From the NCBI GenBank assembly GCA_040235515.1, contig JBECKX010000063.1, positions 1-40,983 on the forward strand: a stretch of 40,983 nt of DNA, in the 5' to 3' direction. The translations under genes and the position numbers were made by a program. Positions 12,570 to 40,983 of this stretch are shown here, piece by piece; position 1 is the first letter of the stretch; the number at the start of each line of letters is the position of its first letter. This stretch comes from Candidatus Zixiibacteriota bacterium. GTDB lineage: Bacteria; Zixibacteria; MSB-5A5; CAIYYT01. Below the pieces are notes generated by a model. That model was not told where the DNA came from and ran no database searches. It was given only the letters and a program-made list of their open reading frames with translations.

Positions 12570-12587
12570 AGGTTCGGTTCTCCCGTT

Positions 12588-17281: not shown

Positions 17282-17289
17282 GACTCCTC

Positions 17290-22283: not shown

Positions 22284-22554
22284 TTTGCCCTCACAAGTCG
22301 TGGATTGGGTCTTTTTCGGGATTGGCTGCGACTCTTGAGAGACAACTGAGGGATGATTCCTCAGTGCCGCATGCCCGGATGTCGCAGCTTTTCAAAGAAG
22401 TTGTGCAACGGTGTCGTTGGATTTTCATTGAGAATATCGACACAAAATACCACTGTCAAGATATTTTTTTCACAAAGTCTATAGAAAATTGTGCAGAATC
22501 GCGCTATTGATGCTCTTTCAGTGCAGCATGTTATGACTATTGTGCTCCCTATTA

Positions 22555-22570
22555 TGTGATTTTATTCACA
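22555..22570. promoter_or_regulatory. Perfect CRP-family palindrome TGTGA-N6-TCACA in the only sizeable gap of the hyp-hdr-mvh block, about 270 nt upstream of hdrC
   Basis: tgtgattttattcaca is read directly; the surrounding region is AT-rich, promoter-like DNA. Confidence 0.45.
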
Positions 22571-22657
22571 ATAGTAATGAAAACTTATCATTTCACTCCA
22601 CTATTAGCGCGTTGTTTCGAAGTGAAGCGATTTGGGCGTTGGGATCGGAATGATGCC

Positions 22658-23722: not shown

Positions 23723-24827
23723 TGAAGGCCCACTTCGGTTCCAAGAACTGTTTGTATTTGAAGTAGGCAGCGCACGCACCCTCCGATGATACCATCGTCG
23801 CACCAAGAGGGTGGGCGGGTGTACAACCGGCGCCAAAGGCAGGACAATCGCTTGGTTTTATGCGCCCCTGAAGAACCAGCCCGCTCAAGCAGTCGGCAGG
23901 CTCATCTACGGAGTTGCTGGAGAGCTCAAACTGCTTCTCGGCATCGAATTGCTCATACTCTGTGCGGATCCCAAGGCCGCTGTGAGGAATCTCACCCAAC
24001 CCTCGCCACCTGCGCGAGACCACCCGAAATACCTTCGTAACCGCTTCCTGCGCCGACCGATTCCCCTGACGAGTAACTACGCGGCTGTAACGATTATCAA
24101 CTGTCGCTTTCCCGGTTTCCAGCTGCTTCACTACAGCCAGAATCCCTGCCAGGAGATCGAGGGGTTCGAAGCCGGTAACAACTATCGGCACATTGTAGTG
24201 TGCGGCGATTGGCTCATACGATTCCCAGCCCATCACGGCGCAAACATGTCCAGCCGCGAGATACCCCTGAACACGGTTTGAATCCGAGCTAAGCAGGGCT
24301 GACATTGCCGGAGGCACAAGCACATGAGCCGGCAGCAGAGAGAAGTTCGTGATCCCTTCGCGCTGTGCCTGCAGGACTGCCATTGCAGTCGTTGGGGCGG
24401 TAGTCTCAAACCCCACTGAGAAGAAGACGACTTTCTGCTCCCGATTCTCACGGGCGATGCGGACGGCGTCGAGGGGAGAGAGGACGACTCGTATGTCTGC
24501 ACCTCTCGATTTTGCAGTTAGCAGATCGATCTCCGAACCAGGAACTCTGAGCATATCACCGAAGGAGGTGAATATGACGCCGGGAAGCGCCGCGATTGCG
24601 ATCGCTTTATCGATCATTTCGAGCGGTGTGACACAGACCGGGCATCCGGGACCATGCACGAGTTCGACGCTACCGGCCAGCAATTGATCGATACCGTTGC
24701 GTACGATCGAGTGGGTTTGACCACCACAGACTTCCATAATGACCCACTCCCTGGTCGCACTGCGGCGGATCTCATCCACCAGTGATTTTGCCAGTTCGGC
24801 ATCGCGGAACTCTTCCAGATACTTCAC
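23715..24827 (-). CDS. hypD: HypD, Fe-S scaffold for Fe(CN)2CO assembly
   Basis: [18 protein letters not shown] and FETTAP motifs. 370 aa. Confidence 0.9.
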
Positions 24828-24836
24828 GGCACAACC

Positions 24837-25082
24837 TTACTCTTCCTGCTCGCTCGTCGCCAACGCATACTCACGCCAGAGAGCCAGAGTCTCTTGTGCC
24901 TCGACCTCATCGAGCACGCTGATGGCAAAGCCTGCGTGCACGAGCAGGTATTGACCAGGCACTGCGTCGGGGAGATACTCAAGACACGCTTTCTGGATGC
25001 TGCCGGAGAAATCCACCCGACCCATCTTAAGCCCATGTTCTTCTACTATCTCTATCAGTTTTCCCGGTATTGCCAGGCACAT
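24837..25082 (-). CDS. hypC: HypC/HupF chaperone
   Basis: The conserved N-terminus MCLAIPGKLIEI (essential Cys2) begins at the internal ATG. SD GGAGGAG immediately upstream; the track ORF start (25106) adds 8 unlikely residues. Confidence 0.9.
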   Translation of the reverse strand: MCLAIPGKLIEIVEEHGLKMGRVDFSGSIQKACLEYLPDAVPGQYLLVHAGFAISVLDEVEAQETLALWREYALATSEQEE

Positions 25083-25098
25083 AGTCTCCTCCTTCGGG

Positions 25099-27417: not shown

Positions 27418-27438
27418 CAGAAATCAATCCCGGTTCGG

Positions 27439-28119
27439 CTAGCTGCCCAGCCGCTGCAGTTGCTTCTGCTCAACTGCGTTCCTGAGCCAGCCATACCAAT
27501 CCTCCAACCCGACGCCTGATCTGCAGGATAGCGTGAGGAAAGTCAGGTTTCCGTTAATCTGCCGAGCGTTCCTGACGGCGGTGTCGAGATCAAAGTCACA
27601 CAGTTCGAGCATATCGATTTTGTTGATAACCATGACGGATGAGCGTCGAAACATGCCGGGGTACTTGAGTGGCTTATCGTCCCCCTCGGTAGTACTCATC
27701 AAGACTACCTTGAGGTCCTCCCCGAGGTCATAGCTTGATGGACACACCAGGTTGCCGACATTCTCGATGAAGAGCAGTTCTATCTCTTCCAGATCGAGTT
27801 GATCTACAGATTTCGCTACCATCCTTGCATCGAGATGACACGCCCCTCCGGTCGTAATCGGTCGCACCATTCTGGCTCCCGCCCTGCGCAGTCGATCAGC
27901 GTCGTTCTCCGTCTGCACATCGCCGGCAATCATCGCCAGCTTGATTTCCTCTCCCAGCGCGCTGATGGTCCGTTCCAGCAGGCTGGTTTTGCCCGAACCG
28001 GGTGAACTGACCAGATTGATGCAAAAGATCCCCAAACGGGCAAAACGCTCCCGCAGGTCTGCGGCGAGGCGGTCGTTCTCTGACAGGACTTTTTCCGCAA
28101 CGGTCACTTTCCGAGTCAT
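27439..28119 (-). CDS. hypB: HypB Ni-binding GTPase
   Basis: P-loop SSPGSGKTSLLERTI and the CxxC...C region ahead of the G-domain. 4-nt overlap with hypA. Confidence 0.9.
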   Translation of the reverse strand: MTRKVTVAEKVLSENDRLAADLRERFARLGIFCINLVSSPGSGKTSLLERTISALGEEIKLAMIAGDVQTENDADRLRRAGARMVRPITTGGACHLDARMVAKSVDQLDLEEIELLFIENVGNLVCPSSYDLGEDLKVVLMSTTEGDDKPLKYPGMFRRSSVMVINKIDMLELCDFDLDTAVRNARQINGNLTFLTLSCRSGVGLEDWYGWLRNAVEQKQLQRLGS

Positions 28120-28517
28120 TTGGCCCTCGCCTTCTGTTCCGGGGGATTACATGTAGTGGTCCGGGTTGGATCGTCATCGATCTCAAGATACGCGATCTCC
28201 AGTTCATTGCCCGCGAGCAGCGTGACCGAGTAGCAGTTACATTCCGGGCACTGGAATAGAAAGCGCTCCGAGACGATGAACTCGATTGCACAGGAGTCAC
28301 AGCGGCATTTGATTGGGATAGATTCGATTCGCAGGGTGGTTTCCTCGAGCGGAGTTTCGCGCGCAGAGACTTCGAATCCGAACTGCAGCGCTTCAGGGAC
28401 GACATCAGTGAGCTCACCGATGCGCAGCACGACCGTCTGAACCTGCCCATAAGCATGTTCCTCGATTTGACGAAGAACATGTTCCATGATTGTCTGTGCG
28501 ATGGCAAGTTCATGCAT
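28116..28517 (-). CDS. hypA: HypA Ni metallochaperone
   Basis: Conserved MHE N-terminus (MHELAIAQTIMEHV) at an internal ATG with SD GAGGA. C-terminal Zn site CRCDSC...CPECNC. Confidence 0.9.
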   Translation of the reverse strand: MHELAIAQTIMEHVLRQIEEHAYGQVQTVVLRIGELTDVVPEALQFGFEVSARETPLEETTLRIESIPIKCRCDSCAIEFIVSERFLFQCPECNCYSVTLLAGNELEIAYLEIDDDPTRTTTCNPPEQKARAK

Positions 28518-28797: not shown

Positions 28798-31629
28798 ATG
28801 ACTGAATCAGCAGACCACAACGACGCTACGCGCCAGGTGCAGGTACTGAAGCCCGGCAGCAGAATCGGCCGCTATGAGCTGGTACGCCGGTTGGGCGCCG
28901 GCGGGATGGGTGAGGTTTATCTGGCCCAGGATACTCTGCTGCGCCGCCAGGTTGCGTTGAAATTCCTGATGCCCCACCTGGTAGCTGATGCATCCTTCAA
29001 GGAGCGCTTCCTGCGTGAGGCGCGCTCCGCTGCAGCCTTAAACCATCCGAACATCGTCACCATTTACGAAGTTGGCGATCACGACGGTTATTCATTCATC
29101 GCCATGGAATTCATTGAAGGTTCGCCCCTGAGCGAGTTGGTGGGGGGTGGCGGAGTCGAGCCGGCGCAGATCGTTGGGATCGTGCTGCAGATTTGTGCGG
29201 GACTGGAAGCGGCCCATCGTGCGGGGCTGGTTCATCGCGATATCAAACCTGCCAACATCCTCCTGGGCAGTGACAACCGGGTTCGCATTCTCGATTTTGG
29301 ACTCGCCAAAAGCAACAGTGACCAGCAACTGACCCAGCAAGGTATGGCGATCGGTACGGTTCAATATATGTCGCCGGAGCAGGCGCAGAGTAAGGAGCTC
29401 GATCGGCGCAGCGACCTCTTTTCGCTTGGGGTGGTGATCTATGAATTGCTCGCGGGCAAATCGCCATTCCGAAAGGACCAGCCGATGTCAACGATGTATG
29501 CCATCATCAATGAGGAGCCTCCTCGACTTGCTCTCAAGGAGCAATCGCAGAGTGACTTCTGGCAAAGCATCCTCGACCGGCTCCTCGCAAAGAATGTTGC
29601 CGATAGATTCGATTCGGCGGCAAGCCTGTCCGATGCCGTGTCGGTTGCGTCTGGTCCCTCTACGACCTCCCTTACCGCGATCCCCGCTCAGGCTCCGCGA
29701 ACACGTGCGCTGGCGGTGCTTTACCTGAGAAACATGGGACAGCCGGATGATGAGTTCATCGGCTACGGCATTACGGAGGATCTGATAGTTGATCTATCGC
29801 GAATCGGATCATTGCGTGTCGCCCCCATGCGGTCGATCCTGCGCTTTAAGGATTCCGATGCGGACCTCAAGGAGATCGCGGAGCAGCTTGATGTCTCGAT
29901 GGTGCTGGATGGCTCGATCATGCGTATGGGAGATCACATCAGAGTGTCCGCAAACCTGGTGGAGATTCAAAGCAATCAATCACTCTGGGCGGAGCGCTGG
30001 GAGGAGTCGTTTACGCGGCTGCCGCAGATCAAGACTGCGCTCGCGGAGGGTGTCAGCGCGGCGTTGCAGGTAACTCATTCACAGGTGGAAGTGCTGCGTG
30101 TGGGTGCGCCGGACGCACAGGATCACACCGCGTACGAGCAGTATCTGCGAGCCAAGTATCTGTTCGAACATAAGCAGGATAGTTCCGATGTCGACATTGC
30201 CATGGGGCTTTACAAGGAAGCGCTGCGGCGTGAGGGCGGATTGATTGCGGCACAAGCCGGTTTGGCGGAGATTCTCTCGTATCAGGGTCAGTATCCGCAG
30301 GCACTGCAGATGCTGCAGCAGTCGGTTCAGGATGCCGAGGAACACGAGTTGAAACCGGAGCAAGCCGCGATTCGCCGCCTGCTGGCGGAAACGTATCGCA
30401 AGATGTCACGCTGGGAGGAGGCGTGGGAGCAGGCCGAGGCCGCAAAATCGATTTATGAATCGCTCAATGATCTCGCCGGTGAATCAGAAACACTATCAAC
30501 GATGATTTCGATCCTTCAGCCACAATCCCGTTACGATGAGATACTTGAATTGTTCGACCGCCTGCTGGAGATAGCGCGGGAGCAGGATGACAAGGAAAAG
30601 ACCGCCGATGCTTTGAAAACGATGGGCGTCGTTTATGCGCGGCGAGGTGAATATGACAACGCGCTATCGCTCTATGAGGAGTCGATGCAGATGGCGGTTG
30701 CAAAGAAGAACCTCGCACTGCAGGCCGCCTGTCTTTCAAACATTGGAAATGTAGAGTTCTTTCGAAGGGACCATGAGGCAGCGGCCGAGTATTATCGCAA
30801 GTCCCGAGATCTGTACGACAAGATTGGTGACAAAGCCGGCTCTACCCGTCAGCTCCTCAACGAGGGAACGATCCACTACATCCGTGCCGATTATGCGAAG
30901 GCGGCGGAGCGGTTCAAGGAGGCAGTTGACGATTTCGAGAGGGTCGACAACAAGAGTTCATTGTCGCTCGCGCTCCTCAACCTGAGCCAGACCAAGCTTC
31001 AACTGGGCGAGATCGAGAGTGCTTCCAGAGCGGCCCGCAGAGCGCTGGAGCTTGGTACGGAGATTCGCAGACCGCTGGTTGAGTGCGATGGCCACCTGCG
31101 CCTCGGCGATATCGCACTATTACAGGGCGACCTTGCCTCCGCCGAGGAGTCCTATGAACAGGCGCTTGCAATCGCTGAGGATCACAGTTTCACGCGCAAT
31201 GCAGCCTACATCCACCTAGCGATGGCAGACCTGTTTTACCTCAAGAATAACTTCACAAGCTCCGCGAGTGCGGCCAGGAATGCCAAGCGGGCTGCCAAGG
31301 AAGTTGACGAGAAGTCGATCATGCAGATGGCAACCGCGTACGGTGCGGCGGCTTCCTGTCGCAAGGGGCTGGTCAATGCCGCCCTGCGTGAATTGAGGGG
31401 GGTGGTTCAGGAATTCGGGCAGCAACCGGACCGGGCGATGGAGATTCGCGCAAAATCCTTGCTCGCGGACGCACTGATATTTTGCGGTGGTACCGAGGAA
31501 CGAGAGAGCGAAGGGCATGAGTTGTTCGCCGAGATTACTGCTCTGGCAGAACGGCTGAACCTGAAGCTCGAGTCCAGGCGACTGCAGGATCGATTAGACC
31601 CGGACAATCGACAACCCGATCCGGAGTAG
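28798..31629 (+). CDS. Hanks-type Ser/Thr protein kinase with a TolB-N-like/CadC-type linker domain and C-terminal TPR repeats
   Basis: LGAGGMGEVY, VALK, HRDIKPANILL, DFGLAK and GTVQYMSPEQ are all canonical. Then ALAVLYLRNMGQPDDEFIGYGITEDLIVDLSRIGSLRV (the motif seen N-terminal to TPRs in many bacterial signalling proteins), followed by about 500 aa of TPR-like repeats. Confidence 0.9.
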   Translation: MTESADHNDATRQVQVLKPGSRIGRYELVRRLGAGGMGEVYLAQDTLLRRQVALKFLMPHLVADASFKERFLREARSAAALNHPNIVTIYEVGDHDGYSFIAMEFIEGSPLSELVGGGGVEPAQIVGIVLQICAGLEAAHRAGLVHRDIKPANILLGSDNRVRILDFGLAKSNSDQQLTQQGMAIGTVQYMSPEQAQSKELDRRSDLFSLGVVIYELLAGKSPFRKDQPMSTMYAIINEEPPRLALKEQSQSDFWQSILDRLLAKNVADRFDSAASLSDAVSVASGPSTTSLTAIPAQAPRTRALAVLYLRNMGQPDDEFIGYGITEDLIVDLSRIGSLRVAPMRSILRFKDSDADLKEIAEQLDVSMVLDGSIMRMGDHIRVSANLVEIQSNQSLWAERWEESFTRLPQIKTALAEGVSAALQVTHSQVEVLRVGAPDAQDHTAYEQYLRAKYLFEHKQDSSDVDIAMGLYKEALRREGGLIAAQAGLAEILSYQGQYPQALQMLQQSVQDAEEHELKPEQAAIRRLLAETYRKMSRWEEAWEQAEAAKSIYESLNDLAGESETLSTMISILQPQSRYDEILELFDRLLEIAREQDDKEKTADALKTMGVVYARRGEYDNALSLYEESMQMAVAKKNLALQAACLSNIGNVEFFRRDHEAAAEYYRKSRDLYDKIGDKAGSTRQLLNEGTIHYIRADYAKAAERFKEAVDDFERVDNKSSLSLALLNLSQTKLQLGEIESASRAARRALELGTEIRRPLVECDGHLRLGDIALLQGDLASAEESYEQALAIAEDHSFTRNAAYIHLAMADLFYLKNNFTSSASAARNAKRAAKEVDEKSIMQMATAYGAAASCRKGLVNAALRELRGVVQEFGQQPDRAMEIRAKSLLADALIFCGGTEERESEGHELFAEITALAERLNLKLESRRLQDRLDPDNRQPDPE

Positions 31630-31631
31630 TC

Positions 31632-32636
31632 TTACTCTTTCAGGAAGTATAACTGCCAGAGGTCACGTGCGCTGCGTGACAGCACCGGGCTCAGTGCGAG
31701 TTTTCCGGTCGTCCCGATGCTTTCCTCGAGGTATTGCAACTCTTCAAACCGCTCCTTGACCTGCGGATCGACACCAACCTTGATACCCGCTTCCCGCATC
31801 AAGAGAATCCCTTTGGCTTGCAGCGAGAGTTCGAGTTGAATTCGCAGCAGACAGAGCATGTCGGCGATTGCCTCCCCCGCGAAGCGTGATTTCAGCGACT
31901 CCAGGTACTTACCGACCTTGGAATCCGAAATCTCCCCTGAGAGAATAGATTCCAGCATCTCCGCATCGGCATCGAGTCCGACCCCCAACCAGTTCCTGGT
32001 GGTCGCTTCGCTGCGCTGGAATACGATAATGACGCCGAGGGGTGCAAGTATCAAAATCAGAATCGTGGTGACAAGCGGCGTGAAAGGAAAATGATTGTAG
32101 GCTGAATGCAGCAGATAGGTTAGCAAAATGCCGGGCAGGTACGCTGCCACGTGGCTGCTGCCCAGGCGATCGGCCAGCGTCTTGGCAGCAATCGCAAAAA
32201 TAGCGGTCGCCCCGCCATGCATTACGGCAGTGCCGAACCCCCTGATCGCAAAGAGCACCGGATTCGTTTCTTGCAGTGCCACCAGGTAGTAGAGGTTTTC
32301 CACCAGGGCGAATCCGGCACCGACTGCAAAGCCGTGGATGGCGGCATCAACCGAGAAACCGATTCGCTTGCGGGTGATCAGAAAGATGATGAAGAGCGCT
32401 TTAAAGGATTCCTCGACCGCAGGGGCGACATAACGCGAGAAATCTGTTTGGTCCAGAGCTAGCAATTTCAGGAGTTGGCTGTTGACCAGGAGGCAAATCA
32501 GCGCGACCCCTACTCCGGCGAGGATCGAACGGATGACGCTGCTCAAGCGGACCAGTTTGAAACTGTCGAGATAAATCAAGCCTAGCAGAAAGACAATGAC
32601 GGGAGCTATTGAGAGAAATGCGTTGAGTACGATCAC
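31632..32636 (-). CDS. PrsW-family intramembrane metalloprotease-like protein
   Basis: Polytopic membrane protein with EESFK (EExxK), ...AIHGF..., MHGG and HSAYNHF (HxxxN) motifs in successive TM helices, as in the B. subtilis anti-sigma-W site-1 protease PrsW. C-terminal soluble domain of about 130 aa. Start overlaps the upstream stop (ATGA). Confidence 0.55.
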   Translation of the reverse strand: MIVLNAFLSIAPVIVFLLGLIYLDSFKLVRLSSVIRSILAGVGVALICLLVNSQLLKLLALDQTDFSRYVAPAVEESFKALFIIFLITRKRIGFSVDAAIHGFAVGAGFALVENLYYLVALQETNPVLFAIRGFGTAVMHGGATAIFAIAAKTLADRLGSSHVAAYLPGILLTYLLHSAYNHFPFTPLVTTILILILAPLGVIIVFQRSEATTRNWLGVGLDADAEMLESILSGEISDSKVGKYLESLKSRFAGEAIADMLCLLRIQLELSLQAKGILLMREAGIKVGVDPQVKERFEELQYLEESIGTTGKLALSPVLSRSARDLWQLYFLKE

Positions 32637-35587
32637 AAGATCTTGAGAGATAACATGAATTCTGTTTGGCGGCGCTCATTGATTTCCGCAGCTACCGCGT
32701 AGCCGGCGGACAATGTCAGGTCTTGATGTGACAACATTATAAGTTTCACATCGATTTGTCCACCTAAATTCAGATATCGTCTACGAAGATCTTTTACGTC
32801 GAAGTTGGTTGCAAGCCCACCGCTGAAGAATGATATCCTTGCCCAGGACGCGTAGAAGCTCGGAATACCCAACTGCCGGAAGCGGATCGCGGGCAGGTTG
32901 AGTTCCAGCAGGGAGCTGACAAAGGTTGTCCCCCCTGCCTGGTTGAGTTCCAGTCCGGGAAAGCTGTAATACATGCGATAACGTTTTGTTGCTCCATGAT
33001 CGACCCAGTTGTTGCCGAACCCTCCGAAATAGAAATTGGCCAGCGGTTCGATTCTCGCGGTCGGTGATCCCCCGATCGCGTTGCGCAACCAGACCGAAGT
33101 GTGCGGTACCGGCAGCTCCATGCCGAGATCCAGCGTTGAGTAGACCCTCGGGAAGAATTTCTTGTTCACGTACTTGGAGTTTCCAACCAACTGGCACGCG
33201 ATTCCGCGCTCATAGTCGACCGCGCCTATCGATGCCCTTCTGTTGCTATAGTTGACATGTGCCCCGCCGGAAAGGAACCGGTCAAATGAAGTCGTGATGT
33301 TCTGGTAGGCGGGCAGTTTCTCCAGACCGCCATACGCGGCGAGGTCAAAGCCATAGCCGGATGCCTTCGGCCCATCCATGTAGAGAGTTCCGCTGTAGCG
33401 CACGCTGCCGGAATAGCCCTTGCGACTGGTCTTGGTGGGCCCGAACAGGTCATAGAAATCCGCGGCGTTGTAACGGGCTGCAAAACTCCAGCTCAAGTGG
33501 CTGTAGTCGAACGCACCGTGCCAGCGCTCATCGGTCGGTATCCTCACATTGGGGGAATATGATGCGGTGAAGTTGAACTCGTGCAGCAGCAATGGATCTG
33601 AGAGATTGAGCTGCATTCCATAGGCGACATGATCCCCATAGCCTTCAACGACCGGATATGTCGATGCGACACCGACGCTCTTGAAGGCGTTATAGTCGCC
33701 ATCATAAACCGTGATCGAATCCAGGTTGATATCGGCGGGAGAGCCGGCAAGCCAGTCGGTCACGACGGGATGTTTCTCTACGATCGCCTGTCCGAGGTAG
33801 TTGACGGCATTAACATCTGTCAGGGGCCGCGCATTGAACTTCACCGGCGTGAACCCGTTCGGCCTGAATTCGAAGGCGATCAGCGAGTCGGCGGTGTATG
33901 GCAGTTGCCGGAACAAACCCGACTCGCAGTTCGATAAGATCTCCATCGAATCGAGATCAGAATCATAGCGCCAGATGTTGGAAACGCCGGTGTAGTAGCT
34001 GGATCCAAGCAGGTAGCGACCATCGCCCGAGTAAACGAAGTTGGCGGGACTGCTATTTTCGAAGTCGAACAATATCGTGTAAGTCGTATCACCGGCCATC
34101 AGCCCGGCGATCTCCATCTGAATCAATGTCTGACGACCACTGATCTCCGAGAGCGCACCGGCCAGTTTCGTTCCGTCGCGATTGACGTCGATGTCGTAGA
34201 TGTCGCGGCCATAAGGCCAGGAATAGATCTGGTTCCACCTGTCGTATGGGTAAGGTATTCTCACCAGGGTAGAGATTCCGGCAGCGTGCCTTACGCCCCA
34301 GAGGGAGGAGTCCGCTTCGCAGAAAGCGAGATCGCCGATTCTGGCATCCTTTTGCAGAAGTCGCGTTTCACCGGTTTGCAGGTCGACGACATTGAGGTCA
34401 CGCCATTCGTTGTTATCGGAGGTATAGAAGAGCTGGTCGCGCTGACGATCGTAGACGACCGATCCAACGAAGAACATTGCCGCACCCTTGACATCGCAGA
34501 CCTGTCGCATTTTTCCGGTATCAACATTGATTGCCGCGATGTGCGAAGTACGCCCCGGATAGTTCACCGCCACATAGATTTCCCGTCGCCGTTCGTCAAA
34601 ACACGCCCTGGAGATCGAACCGAGTTCCTGAGCCGTGATCTGAGCCAGTTCGGTCGTTGGATACTCGCGGATCAAACTCAGGTTTTCCTGCTGGAACACG
34701 TGCTCCCATTTGATCCAGTCGTTCCAGGCTTCACCGAGGCCGACCCCGAAGATGCGCTTAAAGTCCGAGGCAAAGTAGCTGTTCGATTCCTGGCGGCGTG
34801 CCATCCACTGTAGCAGTTTTTCCGGGCCATATTCGAGCGCCACGTAGCTCACGAAGCGTGTGCCATAAAGATAGGCATTGACGGTCTGCTGGAAGTCAAC
34901 CTTCGTTCCCTCTGTCTCAAGTCCGACCAGATCGTAGATCGGTGCATCGTTTAGCACGCGTGTACGAAAGACCATTTCATCGTAGGGTCCCAGTACGCGA
35001 CCCAGGCCGCCAGCCATCCAGGTCTCCATGAAGACAGCGGTTCCTTCGTGGAACCACCTCGGAGCTGACCGCCTTGGGACGGTCAGGTGACTGTAGAGCA
35101 TGGTCAGGGGTTGGTCGGAGTCCTCGCGGATTTTGCCCATGAAGATGGTTCTGAAGAAGTTGTCGCTACCGTCGGCTCTGTCGCTTGCGACGATGTGCAG
35201 AAGCTCGTGGTTCATGGTAGCGTTCATGCGCTCGTTCGCGGGTGCGTTTTCGTAGACGTAGCTGAACGGCGCAATTGCTACCGAGATATGATTGCGAGGA
35301 GCCGAGCTGGCACCGGCGTTGCCATAGTCTCCCATGTCGTGGAGAAGGACAGTGATCTTTTCTTTGGACTTGTAGTTGAACAGCTTCTGGTGAAGCGCCA
35401 GTGAGTTCTCGAAGCAGCGCGCGGTGTAAGGAACCAGGTATTTATTGATTTCGCCGTAGTAGATCAGGTTCAGATTCTTCGTTTCGAACGAACTGAGCTG
35501 AGCACTGGCTGAGCCGATGAAGAGAGTGACGATGAGCAGTGTCGTATGAATCAATGGCAGACACTGTCGGAGCTTCCGAATTTGCAC
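32633..35587 (-). CDS. Large exported protein: N-terminal gluzincin (M1-like HExxH...WxxEG) domain, central beta-propeller-like repeats, beta-strand-rich Omp85-like C-terminal region
   Basis: Signal peptide LLIVTLFIGSASAQ. MNHELLHIVAS...RWFHEGTAVFME (compare HExxH...WLNEG in the M1/LTA4H family). Repeated YxxDxxxxxL-type propeller blades (TSDNNEWRDLNVVDLQTGE, GRDIYDIDVNRDGTKLAG). C-terminal 300 aa with an alternating hydrophobic pattern and NFYFGGFGNN, reminiscent of BamA/TamA barrels. Confidence 0.55.
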   Translation of the reverse strand: MQIRKLRQCLPLIHTTLLIVTLFIGSASAQLSSFETKNLNLIYYGEINKYLVPYTARCFENSLALHQKLFNYKSKEKITVLLHDMGDYGNAGASSAPRNHISVAIAPFSYVYENAPANERMNATMNHELLHIVASDRADGSDNFFRTIFMGKIREDSDQPLTMLYSHLTVPRRSAPRWFHEGTAVFMETWMAGGLGRVLGPYDEMVFRTRVLNDAPIYDLVGLETEGTKVDFQQTVNAYLYGTRFVSYVALEYGPEKLLQWMARRQESNSYFASDFKRIFGVGLGEAWNDWIKWEHVFQQENLSLIREYPTTELAQITAQELGSISRACFDERRREIYVAVNYPGRTSHIAAINVDTGKMRQVCDVKGAAMFFVGSVVYDRQRDQLFYTSDNNEWRDLNVVDLQTGETRLLQKDARIGDLAFCEADSSLWGVRHAAGISTLVRIPYPYDRWNQIYSWPYGRDIYDIDVNRDGTKLAGALSEISGRQTLIQMEIAGLMAGDTTYTILFDFENSSPANFVYSGDGRYLLGSSYYTGVSNIWRYDSDLDSMEILSNCESGLFRQLPYTADSLIAFEFRPNGFTPVKFNARPLTDVNAVNYLGQAIVEKHPVVTDWLAGSPADINLDSITVYDGDYNAFKSVGVASTYPVVEGYGDHVAYGMQLNLSDPLLLHEFNFTASYSPNVRIPTDERWHGAFDYSHLSWSFAARYNAADFYDLFGPTKTSRKGYSGSVRYSGTLYMDGPKASGYGFDLAAYGGLEKLPAYQNITTSFDRFLSGGAHVNYSNRRASIGAVDYERGIACQLVGNSKYVNKKFFPRVYSTLDLGMELPVPHTSVWLRNAIGGSPTARIEPLANFYFGGFGNNWVDHGATKRYRMYYSFPGLELNQAGGTTFVSSLLELNLPAIRFRQLGIPSFYASWARISFFSGGLATNFDVKDLRRRYLNLGGQIDVKLIMLSHQDLTLSAGYAVAAEINERRQTEFMLSLKIL

Positions 35588-35747
35588 GACGCCTCGAATT
35601 TGCAGGAGGTTAGAATAGGTAGTTTTGCTGCGGCCAGGTTACACAGACGAAAGCTTCCGCCATATCAGGCAGAAGCCTCCGCAGCCATGCAACGTTTCAA
35701 AAACAGGGTCCCGTTTGGGGACCCTGTCTGAGACTGAAAGGGCTGCT

Positions 35748-37331
35748 TTACCTGGCCTTGTAGTCCGGATCCGCCGCGTAGCGGGAGAACTCAACCAGCG
35801 CGCCTGAAGTCAGGCGAGCGAATTCCTGGCTCTTGATGGCAGAACGCACGCCGTCGTTAGCCATAGCGCGTGCCAGTTCCGGTTTTGCCATGATTCGAGC
35901 GAAGTCGGGTGAGTTGAGAGCTGCGGCGAACTGAGGATTGCCGATCGCACGAGCGAAGTTCTCATTGGCGAGGACCTTCAGGAAGTGATCACTCGTAACG
36001 CCACTCAGATTGCGGCGGAACTCATCGCTGCCGGCCAGTTTGATTGCGGTCGGATTGGCCATTGCGCGACGGAAGTCGGCGTTCTTGGCAGCCTGCATGA
36101 AGGTCGGCATCACCGAGAGTCTCTGGAATTCGGGGCTCGCGAGAGCCTTGGCAACCTCCGGCTGGGCCGCAGCGCGACGGAAGTCGGCGTTCTTGGCGGC
36201 TTGATGGAAGGTTGGCTCCATCGACAGGCGTCTGAAATCAGGATCCTGCATCATTTTCATGATTTGCGGCTGTACCGCCAGGCGGGCGAATTCCTCGTTG
36301 CCGAGCAGCTTCGCCACTTCCGGGGCGGCAGAGGCACGCGCGAAATCGGGCGACTGCATCAGCCGAGCGAACTCCGGCTTTACCGTGGCGCGCTTGAACT
36401 CATCGCTGGTCAGCAGCTTCTTGAGTCCCGGATCTTGTGCGAGGCGACTGAACTCGGGTGAGGCCAGCGCTTTGGCAATATCGGGCGATGCTGAAAGGCG
36501 AGCGAATTCCTCACCCGTGAGCAACTTGGCAAGTTCCGGCTCGGCGAAGGCGCGGCTCAGTTCCGGCGAGAACAGCACCTTGGCGATTTCCGGCTGCGCG
36601 GTCGCACGGGCGAACTCAGGTGACTGGAGCATCTTCGCGAAACCTTCATTGGCGCTGGCGCGATGGAATTCTTCTCCGGCGATCAGAGCGTAGACACCTT
36701 CCTGGGCGGCAAAGCGATTGAATTCCGCACTCTTCATGGCCTGCACAACCAGCGGGTCGGCGAAGGCGCGATTCAGATCAGCATTGCCGAACACAGTGGC
36801 GATCGCGGGGCTCGCGGCATTGCGGCTGAACTCGGCGTTCGTAATCGCCGCCAGAACTGCCGGATCGGCTGAAGCGCGCGCGAGATCCTGATCCATGATC
36901 GAGCTACGGAAATGGTCCGCGGTGACACCGCTCATGTAGCGGTTGAAGTCGCCGCTCGCAAACACTTTGGCGAGTTCGGGATCGGCCATCAAACGGCTGA
37001 ACTCTTCGCTCGCGATTGCCTTCCGCACTTCCGGGTCAGCCATCGCACGCTGGAATTCCTGGCTTGCAATGATGCTGCGGAAGTTATCGTCCTCGAGCAG
37101 GGCGATAATCTGGTCATCCTGGAACAGTTCCTGAATCTCGGTGTCACCCAGTGTGACATCATCCTCTTTGATCTGTTCCGTCCGGTACTTCTTCGCGGCA
37201 CCGATCGTGCCCTGTGCATCCTCTTCAGAAGGTGGATAACCGCTGAATACCACAATCGCGACCACCACGATCACGGCGATGATTCCACCAAAAATGAGTT
37301 TTGAGCTGCCTGCCATATCAACCTCCTCCAA
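35748..37331 (-). CDS. Membrane-anchored (single N-terminal TM) protein consisting almost entirely of about 22 tandem 19-aa repeats of the consensus SPEFARxxAxPExAKxLxx
   Basis: TM segment LIFGGIIAVIVVVAIVVFSG followed by repeats, for example SPEFARATAQPEIAKVLF / SPELSRAFAEPELAKLLTG / EEFARLSASPDIAKALA / SPEFSRLAQDPGLKKLLT / SDEFKRATVKPEFARLMQ / SPDFARASAAPEVAKLLG ... The many overlapping plus-strand ORFs in the track here are repeat artefacts. Confidence 0.7.
   Translation of the reverse strand: MEEVDMAGSSKLIFGGIIAVIVVVAIVVFSGYPPSEEDAQGTIGAAKKYRTEQIKEDDVTLGDTEIQELFQDDQIIALLEDDNFRSIIASQEFQRAMADPEVRKAIASEEFSRLMADPELAKVFASGDFNRYMSGVTADHFRSSIMDQDLARASADPAVLAAITNAEFSRNAASPAIATVFGNADLNRAFADPLVVQAMKSAEFNRFAAQEGVYALIAGEEFHRASANEGFAKMLQSPEFARATAQPEIAKVLFSPELSRAFAEPELAKLLTGEEFARLSASPDIAKALASPEFSRLAQDPGLKKLLTSDEFKRATVKPEFARLMQSPDFARASAAPEVAKLLGNEEFARLAVQPQIMKMMQDPDFRRLSMEPTFHQAAKNADFRRAAAQPEVAKALASPEFQRLSVMPTFMQAAKNADFRRAMANPTAIKLAGSDEFRRNLSGVTSDHFLKVLANENFARAIGNPQFAAALNSPDFARIMAKPELARAMANDGVRSAIKSQEFARLTSGALVEFSRYAADPDYKAR
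35834..37109. repeat. Intragenic tandem repeat array with a period of about 57 bp (coding repeats of the previous CDS)
   Basis: Periodicity seen in the translated protein and in the recurring gcgcgngaattc/ggcga-like nucleotide strings. Confidence 0.6.
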
Positions 37332-37483
37332 TGTGTGGTTTATGGATTTCTGTTATCTATTCTGCGTTTTGTTTGATCGAATTACTCGTGGGGAGCCAAA
37401 AGGTTGGTCGGAATTTTCGGAAGATTTCAAGTTCCTGATCCGCCTCCGGCGATCTGCCGCTGCCCCGCCTCACTACGTCTCGT

Positions 37484-38311
37484 CTACTCTACCGCGATCT
37501 CCTTCGTCTCGGTCATACCGTTACATGTCAGGGAGACTTTCAGTTTCGACTCGGAAAGCGCCCCGTTCACTTCCAGGATGACATAGATGCTTCCGGGCGC
37601 CGTGAAACGGACCCGCGCCGCACCCGCTTGCCAATCGACTTCGGCAATCCCTGAGCTTTTTCCCGAATCGCCATTGACAACGGCCTTCATCCTGAGGTTG
37701 TGATCCGCCGTGGTGACGGTTGCCTCACAGCCGGCGGTCTGGCTGGAAACCAGGCAGACTACGGCGCCATCTTCCCTGAACGTCGTGAACTCCGCTGATC
37801 CCTTACCCGCAGAGAGTCGGGTCGCGTCGCCGCTGCTCTCTTTTTGTTCGGCAGCGCGCATCAGCAGGGTCCCGACGATCTTGTTGATCTGTCGGGGGTC
37901 AGACTGGTGATCCGGTTCCAGGACAGAAATTGCGACAACAAAGAGCAGAGCCGCGAGGGAAACTCCCGCGGCGAATGCATACGATGGTCTGGTCGTGAAA
38001 CTGCGCGAGACCGCAGATGCAATCCGCGACCAGAGACCTTCTGACTTTTTCGTGGCGGGCAATGCCCTCCGGGCAATTGCAGCCATGATTGACTCTTTCA
38101 GTTCCGCCGGAGGGTCGACCGAGTCGATCTCCCTGATCGATTCGGCGAGCCCGACCATTTCGGAGAAGCGGGCGCGGGCATCAGGCGAGTTCTCGATGAG
38201 TTTCATCAGCGCCTCCGACTCGGCAGCTGAGTTGACACCATCGATCTCTCGCTGGATCAATTCATCGAGCCTGGGGTTGTTCGACTCACTACTCATGCTG
38301 CACCGATGCAA
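37484..38311 (-). CDS. Membrane anti-sigma factor (N-terminal anti-sigma domain, single TM, extracytoplasmic C-terminal domain)
   Basis: N-terminus ...LDELIQREIDGVNSAAESEALMKLIENSPDARARFSEMVGL is RskA/RsiW-like. TM segment SYAFAAGVSLAALLFVVAISV. Start overlaps the 3' end of the ECF sigma gene (alternative ATG at about 38296). Confidence 0.6.
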   Translation of the reverse strand: MHRCSMSSESNNPRLDELIQREIDGVNSAAESEALMKLIENSPDARARFSEMVGLAESIREIDSVDPPAELKESIMAAIARRALPATKKSEGLWSRIASAVSRSFTTRPSYAFAAGVSLAALLFVVAISVLEPDHQSDPRQINKIVGTLLMRAAEQKESSGDATRLSAGKGSAEFTTFREDGAVVCLVSSQTAGCEATVTTADHNLRMKAVVNGDSGKSSGIAEVDWQAGAARVRFTAPGSIYVILEVNGALSESKLKVSLTCNGMTETKEIAVE

Positions 38312-38843
38312 TTCCTGCTTTCTTCAGCAGCGGAACGAGTTGTTGCCGCGCGGAATAGAGCCTTGATTTTACTGTTTTCTCCGGGATTCGGAGAATATCG
38401 GCCATCTCCCGATATGAGAGATCATGAAAATGTCTCAGGATGATTGCCGTTCGCTGCTCGGCCGGGAGTTGCTGCAGGGCTGAGTGGATTTTCGCGCTAT
38501 TCTCGGATTCCTGGAGCAGTTCTTCGGGGTTCTTCACCTCCGGTTGGTCCGGAAGCTCCACCTCCCGCAGCCGCTTCGCTCTGCTGATATGAGTGAGTGC
38601 CTCGTTCATCACAATGCGGTAAATCCAGCTGAAGAACTTGAATTCGGGGTTGAAGTTACGAAGATTCTCATAGGCTTTCACAAAGGTCTGCTGTGTAATG
38701 TCCGCCGCCTCGTCGCGACTACCAACTATCCGGTAGGCTGCGTTGAAGAGTGTGCGTTCGTAGCGATCAACCAGGACCGCGAATTCCTGCCAGTCCCCTC
38801 TCAGACATTGTTCTACTATCTTCGCGTCTGATAAAGTCGACAT
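38289..38843 (-). CDS. ECF (sigma-70 family group IV) sigma factor
   Basis: Region 2: DEAADITQQTFVKAYENLRNFNPEFKFFSWIYRIVMNE. Region 4: LPAEQRTAIILRHFHDLSYREMADILRIPEKTVKSRLYSARQQL. The internal ATG (MSTLSDAKIVEQCLRGD) is preferred to the GTG track start at 38939. Confidence 0.85.
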   Translation of the reverse strand: MSTLSDAKIVEQCLRGDWQEFAVLVDRYERTLFNAAYRIVGSRDEAADITQQTFVKAYENLRNFNPEFKFFSWIYRIVMNEALTHISRAKRLREVELPDQPEVKNPEELLQESENSAKIHSALQQLPAEQRTAIILRHFHDLSYREMADILRIPEKTVKSRLYSARQQLVPLLKKAGIASVQHE

Positions 38844-39117
38844 AATTACTGCTGAACGGCCAGAAGGTTGGTGAGAAACTGGCCGCTTCAGCCAAGTTTT
38901 TCTCCAACGTTCAGCACAAACCTCCCAAACTGAGCCCACTTGAGATAGTTCTGTGCCCCCTAGATTTTCCAGAGACTATTAAATCATTGTAGTTGGTCGT
39001 GTTGGTTGCTCGGATGGGGAAGATAGAGTGACTAACCGTAAATCACAAGCATTTTTGTAGAGCTATGAAGTCGACGAAGCGGGAGTGGAGCCGAAACCGC
39101 GTCAACCGGTAACGGGC

Positions 39118-39408
39118 TCAGTCGCGGATTATCTGGAATATCCGGTCCAGGCCTGAGAATTTGAATACGGTCTGAATGTGGCCGCTCAAATTCTTCAGTT
39201 TGACCGTCTTGCCGGACTGATCGAGCCGCTTGTAGGTTGCAACCAGCACCCCCAGCCCGGCGCTGGAGATATAGTCGAGGTCCGCCAGATCGAAGGTGAT
39301 GGAGCAGTCGACAGGCGCAAGAAATTCGGTCGCTTTTTTTACCTGCGATGCGTCAAAACGGCCCGACAGGGCAATGGTATCATCGGAAATGCGGCTAATC
39401 TCAAACAC
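39118..39408 (-). CDS. STAS-domain anti-sigma-factor antagonist (SpoIIAA/RsbV-like)
   Basis: ...LDYISSAGLGVLVATYKRL.. contains the conserved phosphorylatable Ser in DYISSAG context. 96 aa. Confidence 0.8.
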   Translation of the reverse strand: MFEISRISDDTIALSGRFDASQVKKATEFLAPVDCSITFDLADLDYISSAGLGVLVATYKRLDQSGKTVKLKNLSGHIQTVFKFSGLDRIFQIIRD

Positions 39409-39485
39409 AGGAACGCTCCAATCCTATCACGCTAAACTCTGCATTAGAGAAACCTGAAAGTGCTGTCACGATGCAATTCAATGGC

Positions 39486-39905
39486 TCAGCCACCGGTACT
39501 GTTCAAGTTCTTAATCAAAGTCACACTGCTATTTCTGTCTTTATACTCATACTCAATCTGATCCATCATCGTCTTGACGAGGTGAATTCCCAGTCCTCCG
39601 GCGCGGCGTTCACTGAGCGGCATGTTGATATCGACGGCCGCTGCCTCGGTAGGGTCGAATCTGTCAACGTCGAAGTCGGTCAGCCGTATCCGCAGGATAT
39701 CCGCGCGGTGATCCAGCTCAATTCTGATGTCGTTGCTGCTGCTGTCGTTGTACTTAACCATATTCACGAAGATCTCCTCGACTGCAAGCTGCATCATGCC
39801 GACTATCTCGGGATCGATCTTGCCGCCACCGACAGAACTATCGAGAAAATCCACGATCTGTTCAAGCGCTTCTATCGATTTGGGGAAACTTCGCGAAATT
39901 GGCAT
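39486..39905 (-). CDS. RsbW/SpoIIAB-like anti-sigma factor Ser-protein kinase (GHKL ATPase)
   Basis: 139 aa. HATPase-like ...VEEIFVNMVKYN...RIRLTDFDVDRFDP...GGLGIHLVKTMMDQIEYEY. Confidence 0.7.
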   Translation of the reverse strand: MPISRSFPKSIEALEQIVDFLDSSVGGGKIDPEIVGMMQLAVEEIFVNMVKYNDSSSNDIRIELDHRADILRIRLTDFDVDRFDPTEAAAVDINMPLSERRAGGLGIHLVKTMMDQIEYEYKDRNSSVTLIKNLNSTGG

Positions 39906-40333: not shown

Positions 40334-40983
40334 TCAGGCCGGAGAGTAACTCTCCCGGAGCTGTTCGATTTCGGTGTTGACTTCGTTGGTCAGAGTGAAG
40401 TAAAAGGTTGCGCCTTCGTCGACCTGACTGGTAGCCCAGACGCGGCCGCCGTGTCTCTGTATGATCCTCTGGACCGTTGCCAGGCCAACTCCGATCCCTT
40501 TGAATTCGTGGGCGCCGTGCAGGCGTTGAAATGCCTTGAAGAGCTTCCCCGCATACTTCATGTCAAAACCGGCGCCGTTGTCTTTGACGAAGTAGGTCGT
40601 CTCACCCTCGATCGTCGTCGCTCCGAATGAGATCGTTGCGATCTCACGTTTCTCAGAATACTTCCAGGCATTTCCGAGGAGATTGGTCAGGGCGGCACGC
40701 AGCAACTGCCTGTCTCCCCACACTTCGAGTCCCGGCGTGATGCTCCAGTTGACCAGTCGTTGAGGTTCGGCCAACTGCAGTTCGTTTCTGACAGATTCCG
40801 CCAGCTCGCTCAGGTTGACCTTCTCACGATTCATCTCATTCCGGGTAATTCTGGAGAGGTAGAGAAGACTGTCGATCAGGTCCCCCATCCTGGTTGTGGC
40901 AGAACAGATTCGCTCCAGATAGTTCGCGCTCTGCTCATCAATCTGCGGACCAAGTTCTTCCTGCAGTGCCTGACTGAATCCAT
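40334..40983 (-). CDS. Sensor histidine kinase, 3'-portion (HATPase_c); N-terminal part lies beyond the window end
   Basis: The reading frame stays open upstream of the track's first Met to the window edge (...GFSQALQEELGPQIDEQSANYLERICSATTRMGDLIDSL...). N-box LLGNAWKYSE, G1 VKDNGAGFD, G2 GIGVGLATVQRII. Confidence 0.8.
   Translation of the reverse strand, partial: GFSQALQEELGPQIDEQSANYLERICSATTRMGDLIDSLLYLSRITRNEMNREKVNLSELAESVRNELQLAEPQRLVNWSITPGLEVWGDRQLLRAALTNLLGNAWKYSEKREIATISFGATTIEGETTYFVKDNGAGFDMKYAGKLFKAFQRLHGAHEFKGIGVGLATVQRIIQRHGGRVWATSQVDEGATFYFTLTNEVNTEIEQLRESYSPA

Follow-up and report, generated by a model that had tools for sequence, protein, structure and literature searches.

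A conserved seven-gene locus around an extracytoplasmic function sigma factor in Zixibacteria and other phyla: a possible envelope-signalling module with a PrsW-family protease

Introduction

The locus described in this work lies in a stretch of 40,983 nucleotides from a Candidatus Zixiibacteriota bacterium (contig JBECKX010000063.1), and this whole stretch is referred to here as the window. Seven genes, all on the minus strand, occupy the window from position 39905 to position 31632. The genes encode, in 5' to 3' order, an RsbW-like kinase, a STAS-domain protein, a sigma factor of the extracytoplasmic function (ECF) type, a membrane anti-sigma factor, a repeat protein, an exported protein of 984 amino acids (aa), and a PrsW-family intramembrane protease. 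The gene list and its placement on one strand were given in the initial annotation of the window, and both are correct apart from small corrections according to the open reading frames (ORFs) and their Pfam and NCBIfam matches.

The locus raises the question of what a PrsW-family protease does beside an ECF sigma factor and its anti-sigma factor. PrsW performs the site-1 cleavage of the anti-sigma factor RsiW, and a role as signalling peptidases has been suggested for PrsW proteins that have extra cytoplasmic domains (PMC3482391). The initial annotation read the locus as a regulated-proteolysis system for cell-surface signalling or secretion quality control, with two novel envelope proteins. 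The answer depends on whether the seven genes form one unit, whether the sigma and anti-sigma factors are tied to the downstream genes by more than adjacency, and whether the two proteases act on the anti-sigma factor or are mere products of the sigma regulon. We have identified that the seven genes form one real conserved unit across many bacterial phyla. With moderate confidence, this unit is read as a regulated-proteolysis envelope-signalling module around an autoregulated ECF sigma factor.

The features of the locus are as follows.

39486..39905, minus strand: RsbW-like serine kinase / anti-sigma factor, 139 aa; HATPase_c_2 65.8 bits and weak RsbW matches in NCBIfam
39118..39408, minus strand: STAS-domain anti-sigma antagonist, 96 aa; STAS_2 49.3 bits and TIGR00377 56.5 bits (cutoff 53.45)
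38845..38872, minus strand: predicted ECF-type promoter 1, before the sigma gene; -35 ACCAAC at 38872-38867, -10 AGTAAT at 38850-38845, ATG at 38843; 18.8 bits with the position weight matrix (PWM)
38289..38843, minus strand: ECF sigma factor, 184 aa from the corrected start; Sigma70_r2 59.2 bits and Sigma70_r4_2 62 bits
37484..38296, minus strand: single-pass anti-sigma factor, 270 aa; start ATG 38296, overlap of 8 nt with the sigma gene
37381..37408, minus strand: predicted ECF-type promoter 2, before the repeat gene; ACCAAC at 37408-37403, AGTAAT at 37386-37381; PWM 20.4 bits
35748..37316, minus strand: membrane-anchored repeat protein, 522 aa; most likely start ATG 37316 behind the ribosome-binding site GGAGGAGG
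35699..35729, minus strand: strong hairpin with a U-run, terminator or attenuator; -26.2 kcal/mol, z-score -5.4, 0 of 200 shuffles as stable
32633..35587, minus strand: 984-aa exported protein; HELLH at residues 127-131 (35209-35195) and WFHEGTAVFME
Domains of the 984-aa protein, minus strand: signal peptide 1-29 (ASA/Q), zinc-peptidase domain ~30-310, TolB-like propeller ~320-586, barrel ~628-984
31632..32636, minus strand: PrsW-family intramembrane protease, 334 aa; PF13367 68.6 bits (threshold 23.5) over residues 33-199

Results

Conservation of the locus across phyla

At least 583 carriers of the 984-aa protein were identified in a scan of one genome per species. The loci analysed are those of the 80 closest carriers, and the synteny figures in this work are valid for that sample alone. 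The window proteins were searched by tblastn in these loci and in four extra loci from long contigs. The 80 closest carriers belong to Zixibacteria, KSB1, Ignavibacteria, Bacteroidota (Balneolales, Rhodothermales, and genomes labelled as Cytophagia), Calditrichia, Eisenbacteria, Krumholzibacteria, Fibrobacteres, Cloacimonadota, Marinimicrobia, and Acidobacteriota.

The seven-gene order is largely retained in 82 related loci of about ten phyla, and the synteny that the initial annotation had named as a check holds across phyla. In 68 of 74 loci, the next gene 3' of the 984-aa gene is that of PrsW, encoded on the same strand, and in 63 of 65 loci the repeat gene is positioned 5' of the 984-aa gene. 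An upstream sigma gene of the same strand is present in 43 of 51 loci. The STAS gene is present in 47 and the RsbW gene in 43 of the same number of loci, and the complete RsbW-STAS-sigma order is found upstream in 31 of 51. RsbW and STAS are members of the conserved module, which extends beyond the five downstream genes. Rearrangements are found in some Acidobacteriota. The sigma and anti-sigma genes follow PrsW in L035 and L044, and RsbW/STAS and/or PrsW are moved or inverted in L075, L077, and L084.

The literature searches retrieved no paper that describes this cluster, and PrsW, STAS, and RsbW are not mentioned in the main text of the ECF reclassification paper. None of the seven proteins matches the anti-phage defence models of PADLOC, and the Rfam and tRNA scans were empty.

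A promoter found at two positions of the locus

The sigma factor exhibits regions 2 and 4 and matches TIGR02937 with 110.5 bits against a cutoff of 42.9, which places it among the group 4 (ECF) sigma factors. The best specific model is SigW, below cutoffs (PRK09641 with 121.9 against 209, TIGR02948 with 107.7 against 243). The initial annotation of an ECF sigma factor overlapped by a membrane anti-sigma factor agrees with the Sigma70_r2 and Sigma70_r4_2 matches and with the 8 nt that the two genes share.

In 42 of 50 loci, the 260 nt that precede the sigma gene contain the dyad CAAC-N17-GTA, compared to fewer than one in shuffled sequence. The consensus of the promoter is ACCAACTTT-N13-TGTAyTTATG and it abuts the sigma start, with the start codon exactly 3 nt past GTA in 33 of the 42 loci. 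In the window, this conserved promoter lies inside the longer ORF of 216 aa that begins at 38939 and that had been annotated as the sigma gene. The sigma start is therefore moved to ATG 38843.

The PWM was built from the pre-sigma sites alone. It has exactly two matches on both strands of the 41-kb window, at 38872 and at 37408, and the spacer that separates the anti-sigma gene from the repeat gene contains the second match (promoter 2). The ECF-type -35/-10 elements sought upstream of the sigma and repeat genes are hence present at both sites in the form ACCAAC-N17-GTA. On both strands of 1.2 Mb of related loci, the PWM has 77 matches of at least 18 bits, all on the operon strand. A sigma start codon is abutted by 41 of these matches, the repeat gene is preceded by 36, and none is found elsewhere. 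The 36 pre-repeat sites (30 loci and 6 further matches) are located upstream of the 984-aa gene at a distance of 1.7-2.4 kb. None of them was used in building the PWM, so they are independent of its training set.

The predicted site before the sigma gene exhibits the form expected of an autoregulatory promoter, AAC-N16/17-(C/T)GT upstream of the factor's own gene. The sigma factor probably recognises the ACCAAC-N17-GTA motif, and hence would autoregulate and drive the repeat gene. A start codon 3 nt after GTA leaves no space for a leader or a ribosome-binding site, so a leaderless sigma mRNA is predicted. The scan with the sigma-70 consensus was uninformative.

The strong hairpin of the window is positioned directly after the repeat gene and before the 984-aa gene. 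When only strictly perfect stems are counted, 32 of 66 loci have a comparable stem of 11-12 bp with a T-tail in this spacer, and the sequence of these stems is not conserved. The dyad and k-mer search detected no conserved promoter upstream of the 984-aa gene. The 984-aa and PrsW genes follow the sigma-type promoter and have its orientation, so both are probable targets of the sigma factor. The hairpin likely permits attenuated read-through, which would leave the repeat protein in excess over the two proteases.

Two side observations concern these elements. Several of the hairpins of L008, L013, L027, L028, L037, L045, and L064 have the common stem type GAGATG...CATCTC despite their different lineages, and these stems may represent an RNA element under conservation and not just a generic terminator. 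In L001 (6752-7465), the expected place of the sigma gene has an ATG at ~7080 that is abutted by a full-strength promoter site of 25.9 bits. No gene was called at that position and tblastn with the window sigma factor returned no match there, and the sigma gene may be divergent or degraded.

The repeat protein and its fusion to the anti-sigma factor

The repeat protein of the window consists of a short basic N-terminus, a helix at residues 7-27, a module with the motif GTIG (36-39), and ~23 units of 18 aa from residue 85. The BLOSUM autocorrelation has peaks at lags 18, 36, and 54 and weaker peaks at lags 9 and 27, which gives a period of 18 aa with a half-unit of 9 aa. The 23 units can be stacked with the consensus SpEFaRaxAxPevakalx. 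The single membrane helix and the repeat array of the initial annotation are thus borne out; its period of 19 aa becomes 18 (9+9), its ~22 copies become 23, and its length of 527 aa becomes 522. Tandem Repeats Finder detected nothing in the DNA of the repeat gene, so the repeat exists at the protein level only.

The word-index homology search retrieved only 11 relatives of the repeat protein because its array diverges fast, and the orthologues were taken from syntenic loci instead. These orthologues are alike in their N-terminal part alone, which consists of the basic N-terminus, a helix of 19-24 aa, PP or PW, and the module GTIGAAKKY...Q...DV.L. The invariant residues among 31 orthologues (P29, G36, Q48, and D53) are all in this N-terminal module, and I38, G39, Y44, L56, and Q66 of the module are nearly invariant. 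The array varies in sequence and in length, with ORFs from ~100 to ~750 aa. In L003 (8288-9811), the repeat protein has ~12 near-identical copies of 36 aa (FKVEQFRTI..DD.LR..LADPAVARL), which points to recent expansion of the array and fast turnover.

Two candidate relatives of the repeat protein were rejected. The STI1-HOP_DP family (PF17830) scores 55 bits as a sum of weak repeats, with no individually significant stretch. It matches 12 of 31 orthologues, and unrelated families (Med31, Ribos_L4_asso_C, and others) are matched as well. The resemblance is only compositional or periodic, and the repeat protein is still without a robust named family, as had been noted at first. The PDB match to the B-domain of factor V is a chance likeness between 9-aa repeats.

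In 14 of 71 loci, which belong to several phyla, a single ORF encodes both the anti-sigma domain and the repeat protein, and none of these loci has a separate anti-sigma gene. They are L011, L021, L024, L047, L049, L057, and L059, five loci of Balneolales (L041, L051, L056, L058, and L072), one of Rhodothermaceae (L074), and one of Acidobacteriota (L083). The order in the fusions is anti-sigma domain, membrane helix, GTIG module, and repeats. In BLASTP, residues 4-62 of the L072 fusion match the window anti-sigma factor (E 4e-8) and residues 129-534 match the window repeat protein (E 7e-31). Three architectures are therefore exhibited by the loci. The split architecture, which includes the window, has two genes and two promoter copies. 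The second architecture has the fused gene in one operon behind the sigma gene. In the architecture of Balneolales, the genes rsbW, stas, and sigma are combined in one unit, with an overlap of the STAS and sigma genes in L058, and the promoter is positioned before the fused gene.

The anti-sigma factor of the window carries its anti-sigma domain at the N-terminus, spans the membrane with a helix at ~106-126, and exhibits the juxtamembrane motif G142-T143 (37873-37865). Its NCBIfam match is weak (NF052375, 33 bits against a cutoff of 100), and conservation among 28 orthologues is limited to the N-terminal region, the membrane helix, and the GT motif. The motif G-T-[I/L/M] is found 10-15 residues past the membrane helix in 23 of 28 split anti-sigma factors (chance 0.17), in 41 of 46 split repeat proteins (chance 0.07), and in 13 of 14 fusions. 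In the window, it corresponds to G142-T143 of the anti-sigma factor and G36-T37 of the repeat protein.

The sigma and anti-sigma factors are linked to the downstream genes beyond adjacency because the promoter recurs before the repeat gene and because the fusions exist. The repeat protein is better seen as the periplasmic arm of the anti-sigma factor, or as its paralogous partner, than as a separate envelope protein. Of the two novel envelope proteins proposed initially, the repeat protein is thus reassigned and the 984-aa protein, which no Pfam or NCBIfam family covers, is retained.

The 984-aa protein

The AlphaFold2 model of the 984-aa protein, built with 46 sequences, has a predicted local distance difference test score (pLDDT) of 86.8 and a predicted TM score (pTM) of 0.85. 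In the model, a signal helix is followed by an alpha/beta and helical domain (31-306), a propeller of six blades, and a barrel whose strands are long. The propeller, the barrel, and the motifs HELLH and WFHEGTAVFME had all been recognised in the initial annotation. The predicted cleavage site is ASA|Q, with Q30 nearly invariant. The isolated N-terminal domain gave a model of pLDDT 58, which was too poor and was not used.

The residues H127, E128, H131, and E181 are invariant in the 46 sequences. In the model, these zinc-site residues are placed on consecutive helices (117-136 and 177-191) after a beta-sheet subdomain, as in gluzincins. The modelled domain hence has the layout of the clan MA gluzincins, a conserved HExxH helix with a downstream Glu on a second helix. 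Peptidase_MA_2 (PF13485) matches 11 of 25 orthologues, all below the gathering score (best E 2.7e-5, window E 0.013), and Peptidase_M1 matches 3 of 25 below threshold.

The fold searches were dominated by matches to the propeller, whose fold similarity identifies it as a TolB-like six-bladed propeller. One UniRef orthologue is named 'TolB family protein'. The barrel has sub-threshold matches to Omp85_2 (PF19143) in 18 of 28 orthologues, with a best E of 6e-4 and no match for the window sequence itself, and the 984-aa protein does not match the Omp85 barrel family PF01103. A long invariant loop between the strands counted as 11 and 12 in the model may correspond to the position of Omp85 loop 6. 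No POTRA domain was matched in Pfam, and the model has a linker of only ~40 aa between propeller and barrel. The peptidase domain and the propeller probably face the periplasm.

The full-length protein has no Pfam or NCBIfam family match at E <= 0.01. The PDB sequence searches with the protein, its family profile, and its N- and C-terminal domains found no real relatives. More than 4,600 relatives at 52-58% identity were found, almost all of them 'hypothetical' and none with a Pfam domain. The family members have ~980 aa and an identity of 45-58% across phyla, and one orthologue is encoded in a metagenome-assembled genome of Gracilimonas.

The PrsW-family protease

The 984-aa and PrsW genes are joined by GTGA, where the GTG start overlaps the TGA stop, and not by ATGA as had been annotated. 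The catalytic motifs of PrsW, by which the initial assignment could be judged, are conserved in at least 90% of 67 orthologues: EExxK (E75, E76, K79), H140, and HxxxN (H177, N181). E113 and N114 are likewise conserved. H140 is found within RGFGTAxMHG and the Phe is six residues before it, so the FxxxH spacing is inexact.

A cytoplasmic C-terminal extension of ~130 aa (residues ~205-334) is specific to this subfamily and is conserved as strongly as the protease core. The extension has no Pfam or PDB relative, and the PDB sequence search with PrsW itself found no real relatives. The extension matches 521 cluster representatives, and among the 150 listed it is C-terminal in full-length proteins of ~335 aa.

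The partner-switching pair

The RsbW-like kinase has a HATPase_c_2 domain in which the N-box (E..N) and the G2 box (GGLG) are conserved among 41 orthologues and the G1 box is degenerate. The antagonist is a single-domain STAS protein whose motif DYISSAGLGVL, including the candidate phosphorylated serine, is conserved among 38 orthologues. Both proteins thus exhibit the characteristics of a partner-switching pair. The order of kinase before antagonist, pointed out in the initial annotation together with the lack of a visible PP2C phosphatase, is retained in relatives, and no PP2C phosphatase was found among the larger ORFs of the window that were scanned. A GAF-SpoIIE gene is located ~7 kb away in L001 only. 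The RsbW-STAS order and its apparent co-transcription with the sigma gene in Balneolales recall partner-switched sigma operons.

Two side observations concern the region upstream of RsbW. The C-terminal HATPase_c part of a histidine kinase (40334-40888) lies directly upstream on the same strand. The 430-nt spacer before RsbW has TTGACA-N17-TATCAA at ~39990-39955, a possible housekeeping promoter for rsbW-stas.

Discussion

Proposed mechanism

The regulated-proteolysis reading builds on the results described above, namely the genes present and their conserved order, the promoter at two positions, the anti-sigma/repeat fusions, the common GT motif, and catalytic residues that are intact; the cutting partners, the signal, the orientation of the protease domain, and the target of RsbW are given here as we infer them. 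The sigma factor would be held at the inner membrane by the single-pass anti-sigma factor, whose periplasmic arm would be a proline-punctuated array of helical repeats of 9/18 aa. The arm would be fused to the anti-sigma factor in some lineages. In others, such as that of the window, it would be a separate protein with its own anchor and the same G-T-[I/L/M] motif. Free sigma factor would transcribe its own leaderless mRNA with the anti-sigma gene, and from the second promoter copy it would transcribe the repeat gene, with read-through of the hairpin giving the 984-aa protease and PrsW.

The release of the sigma factor would occur by regulated proteolysis. The 984-aa protease, presumably anchored in the outer membrane by its Omp85-like barrel, would attack or sense the repeat arm. 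PrsW would then cut at or near the shared juxtamembrane motif, a site-1 role as for RsiW in Bacillus, and an unlinked site-2 protease would finish the release. No Pfam domain of a site-2 protease (RasP/RseP) was found in the window ORFs scanned or in the called genes of L001-L004, and linkage of such a protease is not required. RsbW and STAS would provide a cytoplasmic input, either on the sigma factor directly or on the cytoplasmic tail of PrsW.

The more specific form of this reading is tentative and, taken as a whole, rather unlikely. It would be a trans-envelope proteolytic relay that is widespread in the Fibrobacteres-Chlorobi-Bacteroidetes (FCB) group and in Acidobacteriota. The anti-sigma factor would bear, or be paired with, an antenna of proline-punctuated 9-mer helices that spans the periplasm. 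The Omp85-anchored zinc protease would read or cut this antenna and thereby license the PrsW cut at the GT motif, and the same sigma factor would also be gated by RsbW/STAS.

Several findings weigh against regulated proteolysis. Cleavage of the anti-sigma factor by PrsW is suggested by analogy with B. subtilis, and PrsW scores 36.7 bits with NF033739, the equivalog model of the B. subtilis enzyme, whose cutoff is 225. The RsiW-type zinc motif HxxxCxxC is absent from the N-terminal 80 residues of the anti-sigma factor, and the periplasmic domain of the anti-sigma factor is unconserved apart from the GT motif. With the -10 element this near to the ATG, the leaderless start is a prediction. The hairpin may terminate transcription, which makes the sigma-dependence of the 984-aa and PrsW genes uncertain. 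These two genes, being placed behind a sigma-type promoter, could also be mere effectors. The repeat gene, the 984-aa gene, and PrsW are present in L066, L067, L075, and L077 without a nearby sigma gene or promoter, so this trio can work without an adjacent sigma gene.

Alternative explanations

The last points lead to the best surviving alternative, to which we give a clearly smaller probability than to regulated proteolysis in general. The repeat protein, the 984-aa protease, and PrsW would be output only, a stress regulon for envelope quality control or remodelling in which the repeat protein is a periplasmic holdase with STI1-like short helices and neither protease acts on the anti-sigma factor. 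The induction of periplasmic proteases and chaperones by sigma-E would be a parallel case. The sigma-type promoter before the three genes and the loci that have them without an adjacent sigma gene both fit this explanation. The repeat protein also has a weak but recurrent similarity to the STI1/HOP DP domain, in 12 of 31 orthologues, and to the ubiquilin domain, in 4 of them, and the hairpin suggests an excess of the repeat protein over the enzymes. However, the anti-sigma/repeat fusions in 14 of 71 loci are hard to explain for a mere chaperone, and so is a GT motif common to the anti-sigma factor and the repeat protein. A general chaperone would also not usually have a fast-evolving array of variable length. 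The proteolytic reading is favoured over the output-only one by the fusions and the common GT motif. The link between the sigma factor and the downstream genes, as proposed initially, therefore stands through the shared promoter and the fusions, and the part in which PrsW cuts the anti-sigma factor is an analogy.

An explanation that we consider improbable is two-partner-like processing and export. The repeat protein would be a cargo with an N-terminal recognition module that is freed from the inner membrane by PrsW and exported to the cell surface by the Omp85-like barrel, with the propeller and the protease docking or trimming it, and the sigma/anti-sigma pair would regulate production only. 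The barrel resembles Omp85, a superfamily of translocases and insertases (PMC4104836), and a role as a peptidase that releases exported proteins has been suggested for PrsW in other work (PMC3482391). A conserved N-terminal module with a hypervariable array is common in secreted and surface proteins, and the putative cargo gene adjoins the barrel gene with an attenuator between them. Yet the barrel protein lacks a POTRA domain by Pfam and has a short propeller-barrel linker in the model. The Omp85 match is sub-threshold and is not given by the window sequence, TolB-like propellers are typical of periplasmic proteins, and fusion of a cargo to a cytoplasmic anti-sigma domain is left unexplained.

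That the genes are unrelated neighbours by chance is hardly credible. The kinase-TPR genes that are near only about one fifth of the loci indicate that some neighbours are incidental, but the gene order across phyla, the fusions, the promoter at two positions of the cluster, and the start/stop codon overlaps refute this explanation for the seven genes.

Comparison with known systems

The system that regulated proteolysis would resemble most directly is sigma-W/RsiW/PrsW/RasP of B. subtilis, with which the locus shares an ECF sigma factor, a single-pass anti-sigma factor, and a PrsW with conserved catalytic motifs. The promoter form is also alike, where the sigma-W promoter is TGAAAC-N16-CGTA and the promoter here is CCAAC-N17-GTA, and SigW is the best specific model for the sigma factor. 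Unlike in the sigma-W system, prsW is here a neighbour of the sigma locus and follows the sigma-type promoter, and the anti-sigma factor is without the zinc motif and is fused to, or paired with, the repeat array. The locus also has an extra cytoplasmic domain of PrsW, a putative outer-membrane protease, and RsbW/STAS, and its hosts have two membranes.

By a logic similar to that proposed here, the envelope-stress factor sigma-E of E. coli is freed by proteolysis of the single-pass anti-sigma factor RseA by DegS and RseP, and the regulon includes periplasmic proteases near the outer membrane such as BepA. The protease families differ between the two systems (PrsW and clan MA here, DegS and M48 in E. 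coli). The locus has no RseB counterpart, and E. coli has no repeat arm.

The cell-surface signalling of FecA/FecR/FecI type (PMC9249621) is similar to the locus in the co-encoding of an outer-membrane barrel, an inner-membrane anti-sigma factor with a long periplasmic part, and an ECF sigma factor. The barrel here is Omp85-like and not a TonB-dependent transducer, a protease and a propeller take the place of the signalling domain, and no TonB-box logic is visible. The Pfam scan of the cluster proteins detected no FecR-type domain.

The uncharacterised 'WD40-Omp85' subfamily (Heinz & Lithgow, 2014; PMC4104836), compared by its description only, is the closest described architecture and likewise has a TolB-like propeller N-terminal to an Omp85-type barrel. 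The 984-aa family has an extra N-terminal zinc-peptidase domain that is not in that description, and the 'Metallo' subfamily of the same paper uses a different domain, PF00149.

The btr system of Bordetella (BtrS; BtrU/BtrW/BtrV; PMC7498569) is similar in that an ECF sigma factor is co-encoded with an RsbW-like kinase followed by a STAS antagonist, and in that the partner switch controls an envelope process and not a classical group-3 sigma factor. The btr pair controls secretion rather than the sigma factor (PMC7498569). In contrast to btr, the locus has no linked PP2C phosphatase and no counterpart of type III secretion, and btr is without PrsW, the repeat protein, and the Omp85-like protease.

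Several parts of the locus are apparently undescribed: the putative peptidase anchored by an Omp85-like barrel, the repeat array as an arm of the anti-sigma factor, the C-terminal tail of PrsW, a partner switch linked to these genes, and a sigma gene with a predicted leaderless and autoregulated mRNA. If the proposed mechanism is true, the locus would serve as a major pathway of envelope-stress or surface signalling in a large set of little-studied bacteria with two membranes (Zixibacteria, KSB1, Ignavibacteria, Balneolales, Rhodothermales, Calditrichia, Eisenbacteria, and Acidobacteriota), where the sigma-E and Fec paradigms may not apply. It would also give the first functional context to the 984-aa family of zinc peptidase, TolB-like propeller, and Omp85-like barrel, and it would place PrsW in regulated proteolysis outside Firmicutes. 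One ECF sigma factor is possibly under the dual control of a membrane anti-sigma factor and a partner switch. Such a dual-control relay, if true, would report the state of the outer membrane to the cytoplasm by a route not described before. The promoter, the predicted leaderless sigma mRNA, and the candidate cleavage motif are directly testable.

Other genes in the window

The GC content is uniform along the window. The rest of the window consists of NiFe hydrogenase genes, their maturation genes, and several regulators. The hydrogenase region (12051-28513, minus strand) encodes the large and small subunits, NuoF-like, Fe-S, and heterodisulfide-reductase-like subunits, HypB, HypD, a HypE-like protein, HypF, and the HycI protease, and it is seemingly unrelated to the seven-gene locus. 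A protein of 278 aa with a dockerin type I domain is encoded at 7849-8685 (plus strand) and an SPFH/Band 7 family protein of 523 aa at 9532-11103 (plus strand). Band 7 and dockerin/FG-GAP genes are also close to the cluster copy of L001.

A gene (28798-31629, plus strand) that is convergent with PrsW encodes a Ser/Thr kinase of 943 aa with a long TPR region. About one fifth of the related loci have such kinase-TPR genes near the cluster, and L003 has three of them side by side, which may indicate a functional link or abundant paralogues. A further protein of 1441 aa (1087-5412, plus strand) has an unusual architecture, in which a eukaryotic-type kinase is fused to a sigma-54 enhancer-binding protein, and combines a Ser/Thr kinase, TPR, GAF, a sigma-54 activator AAA+ domain, and a Fis-type HTH.

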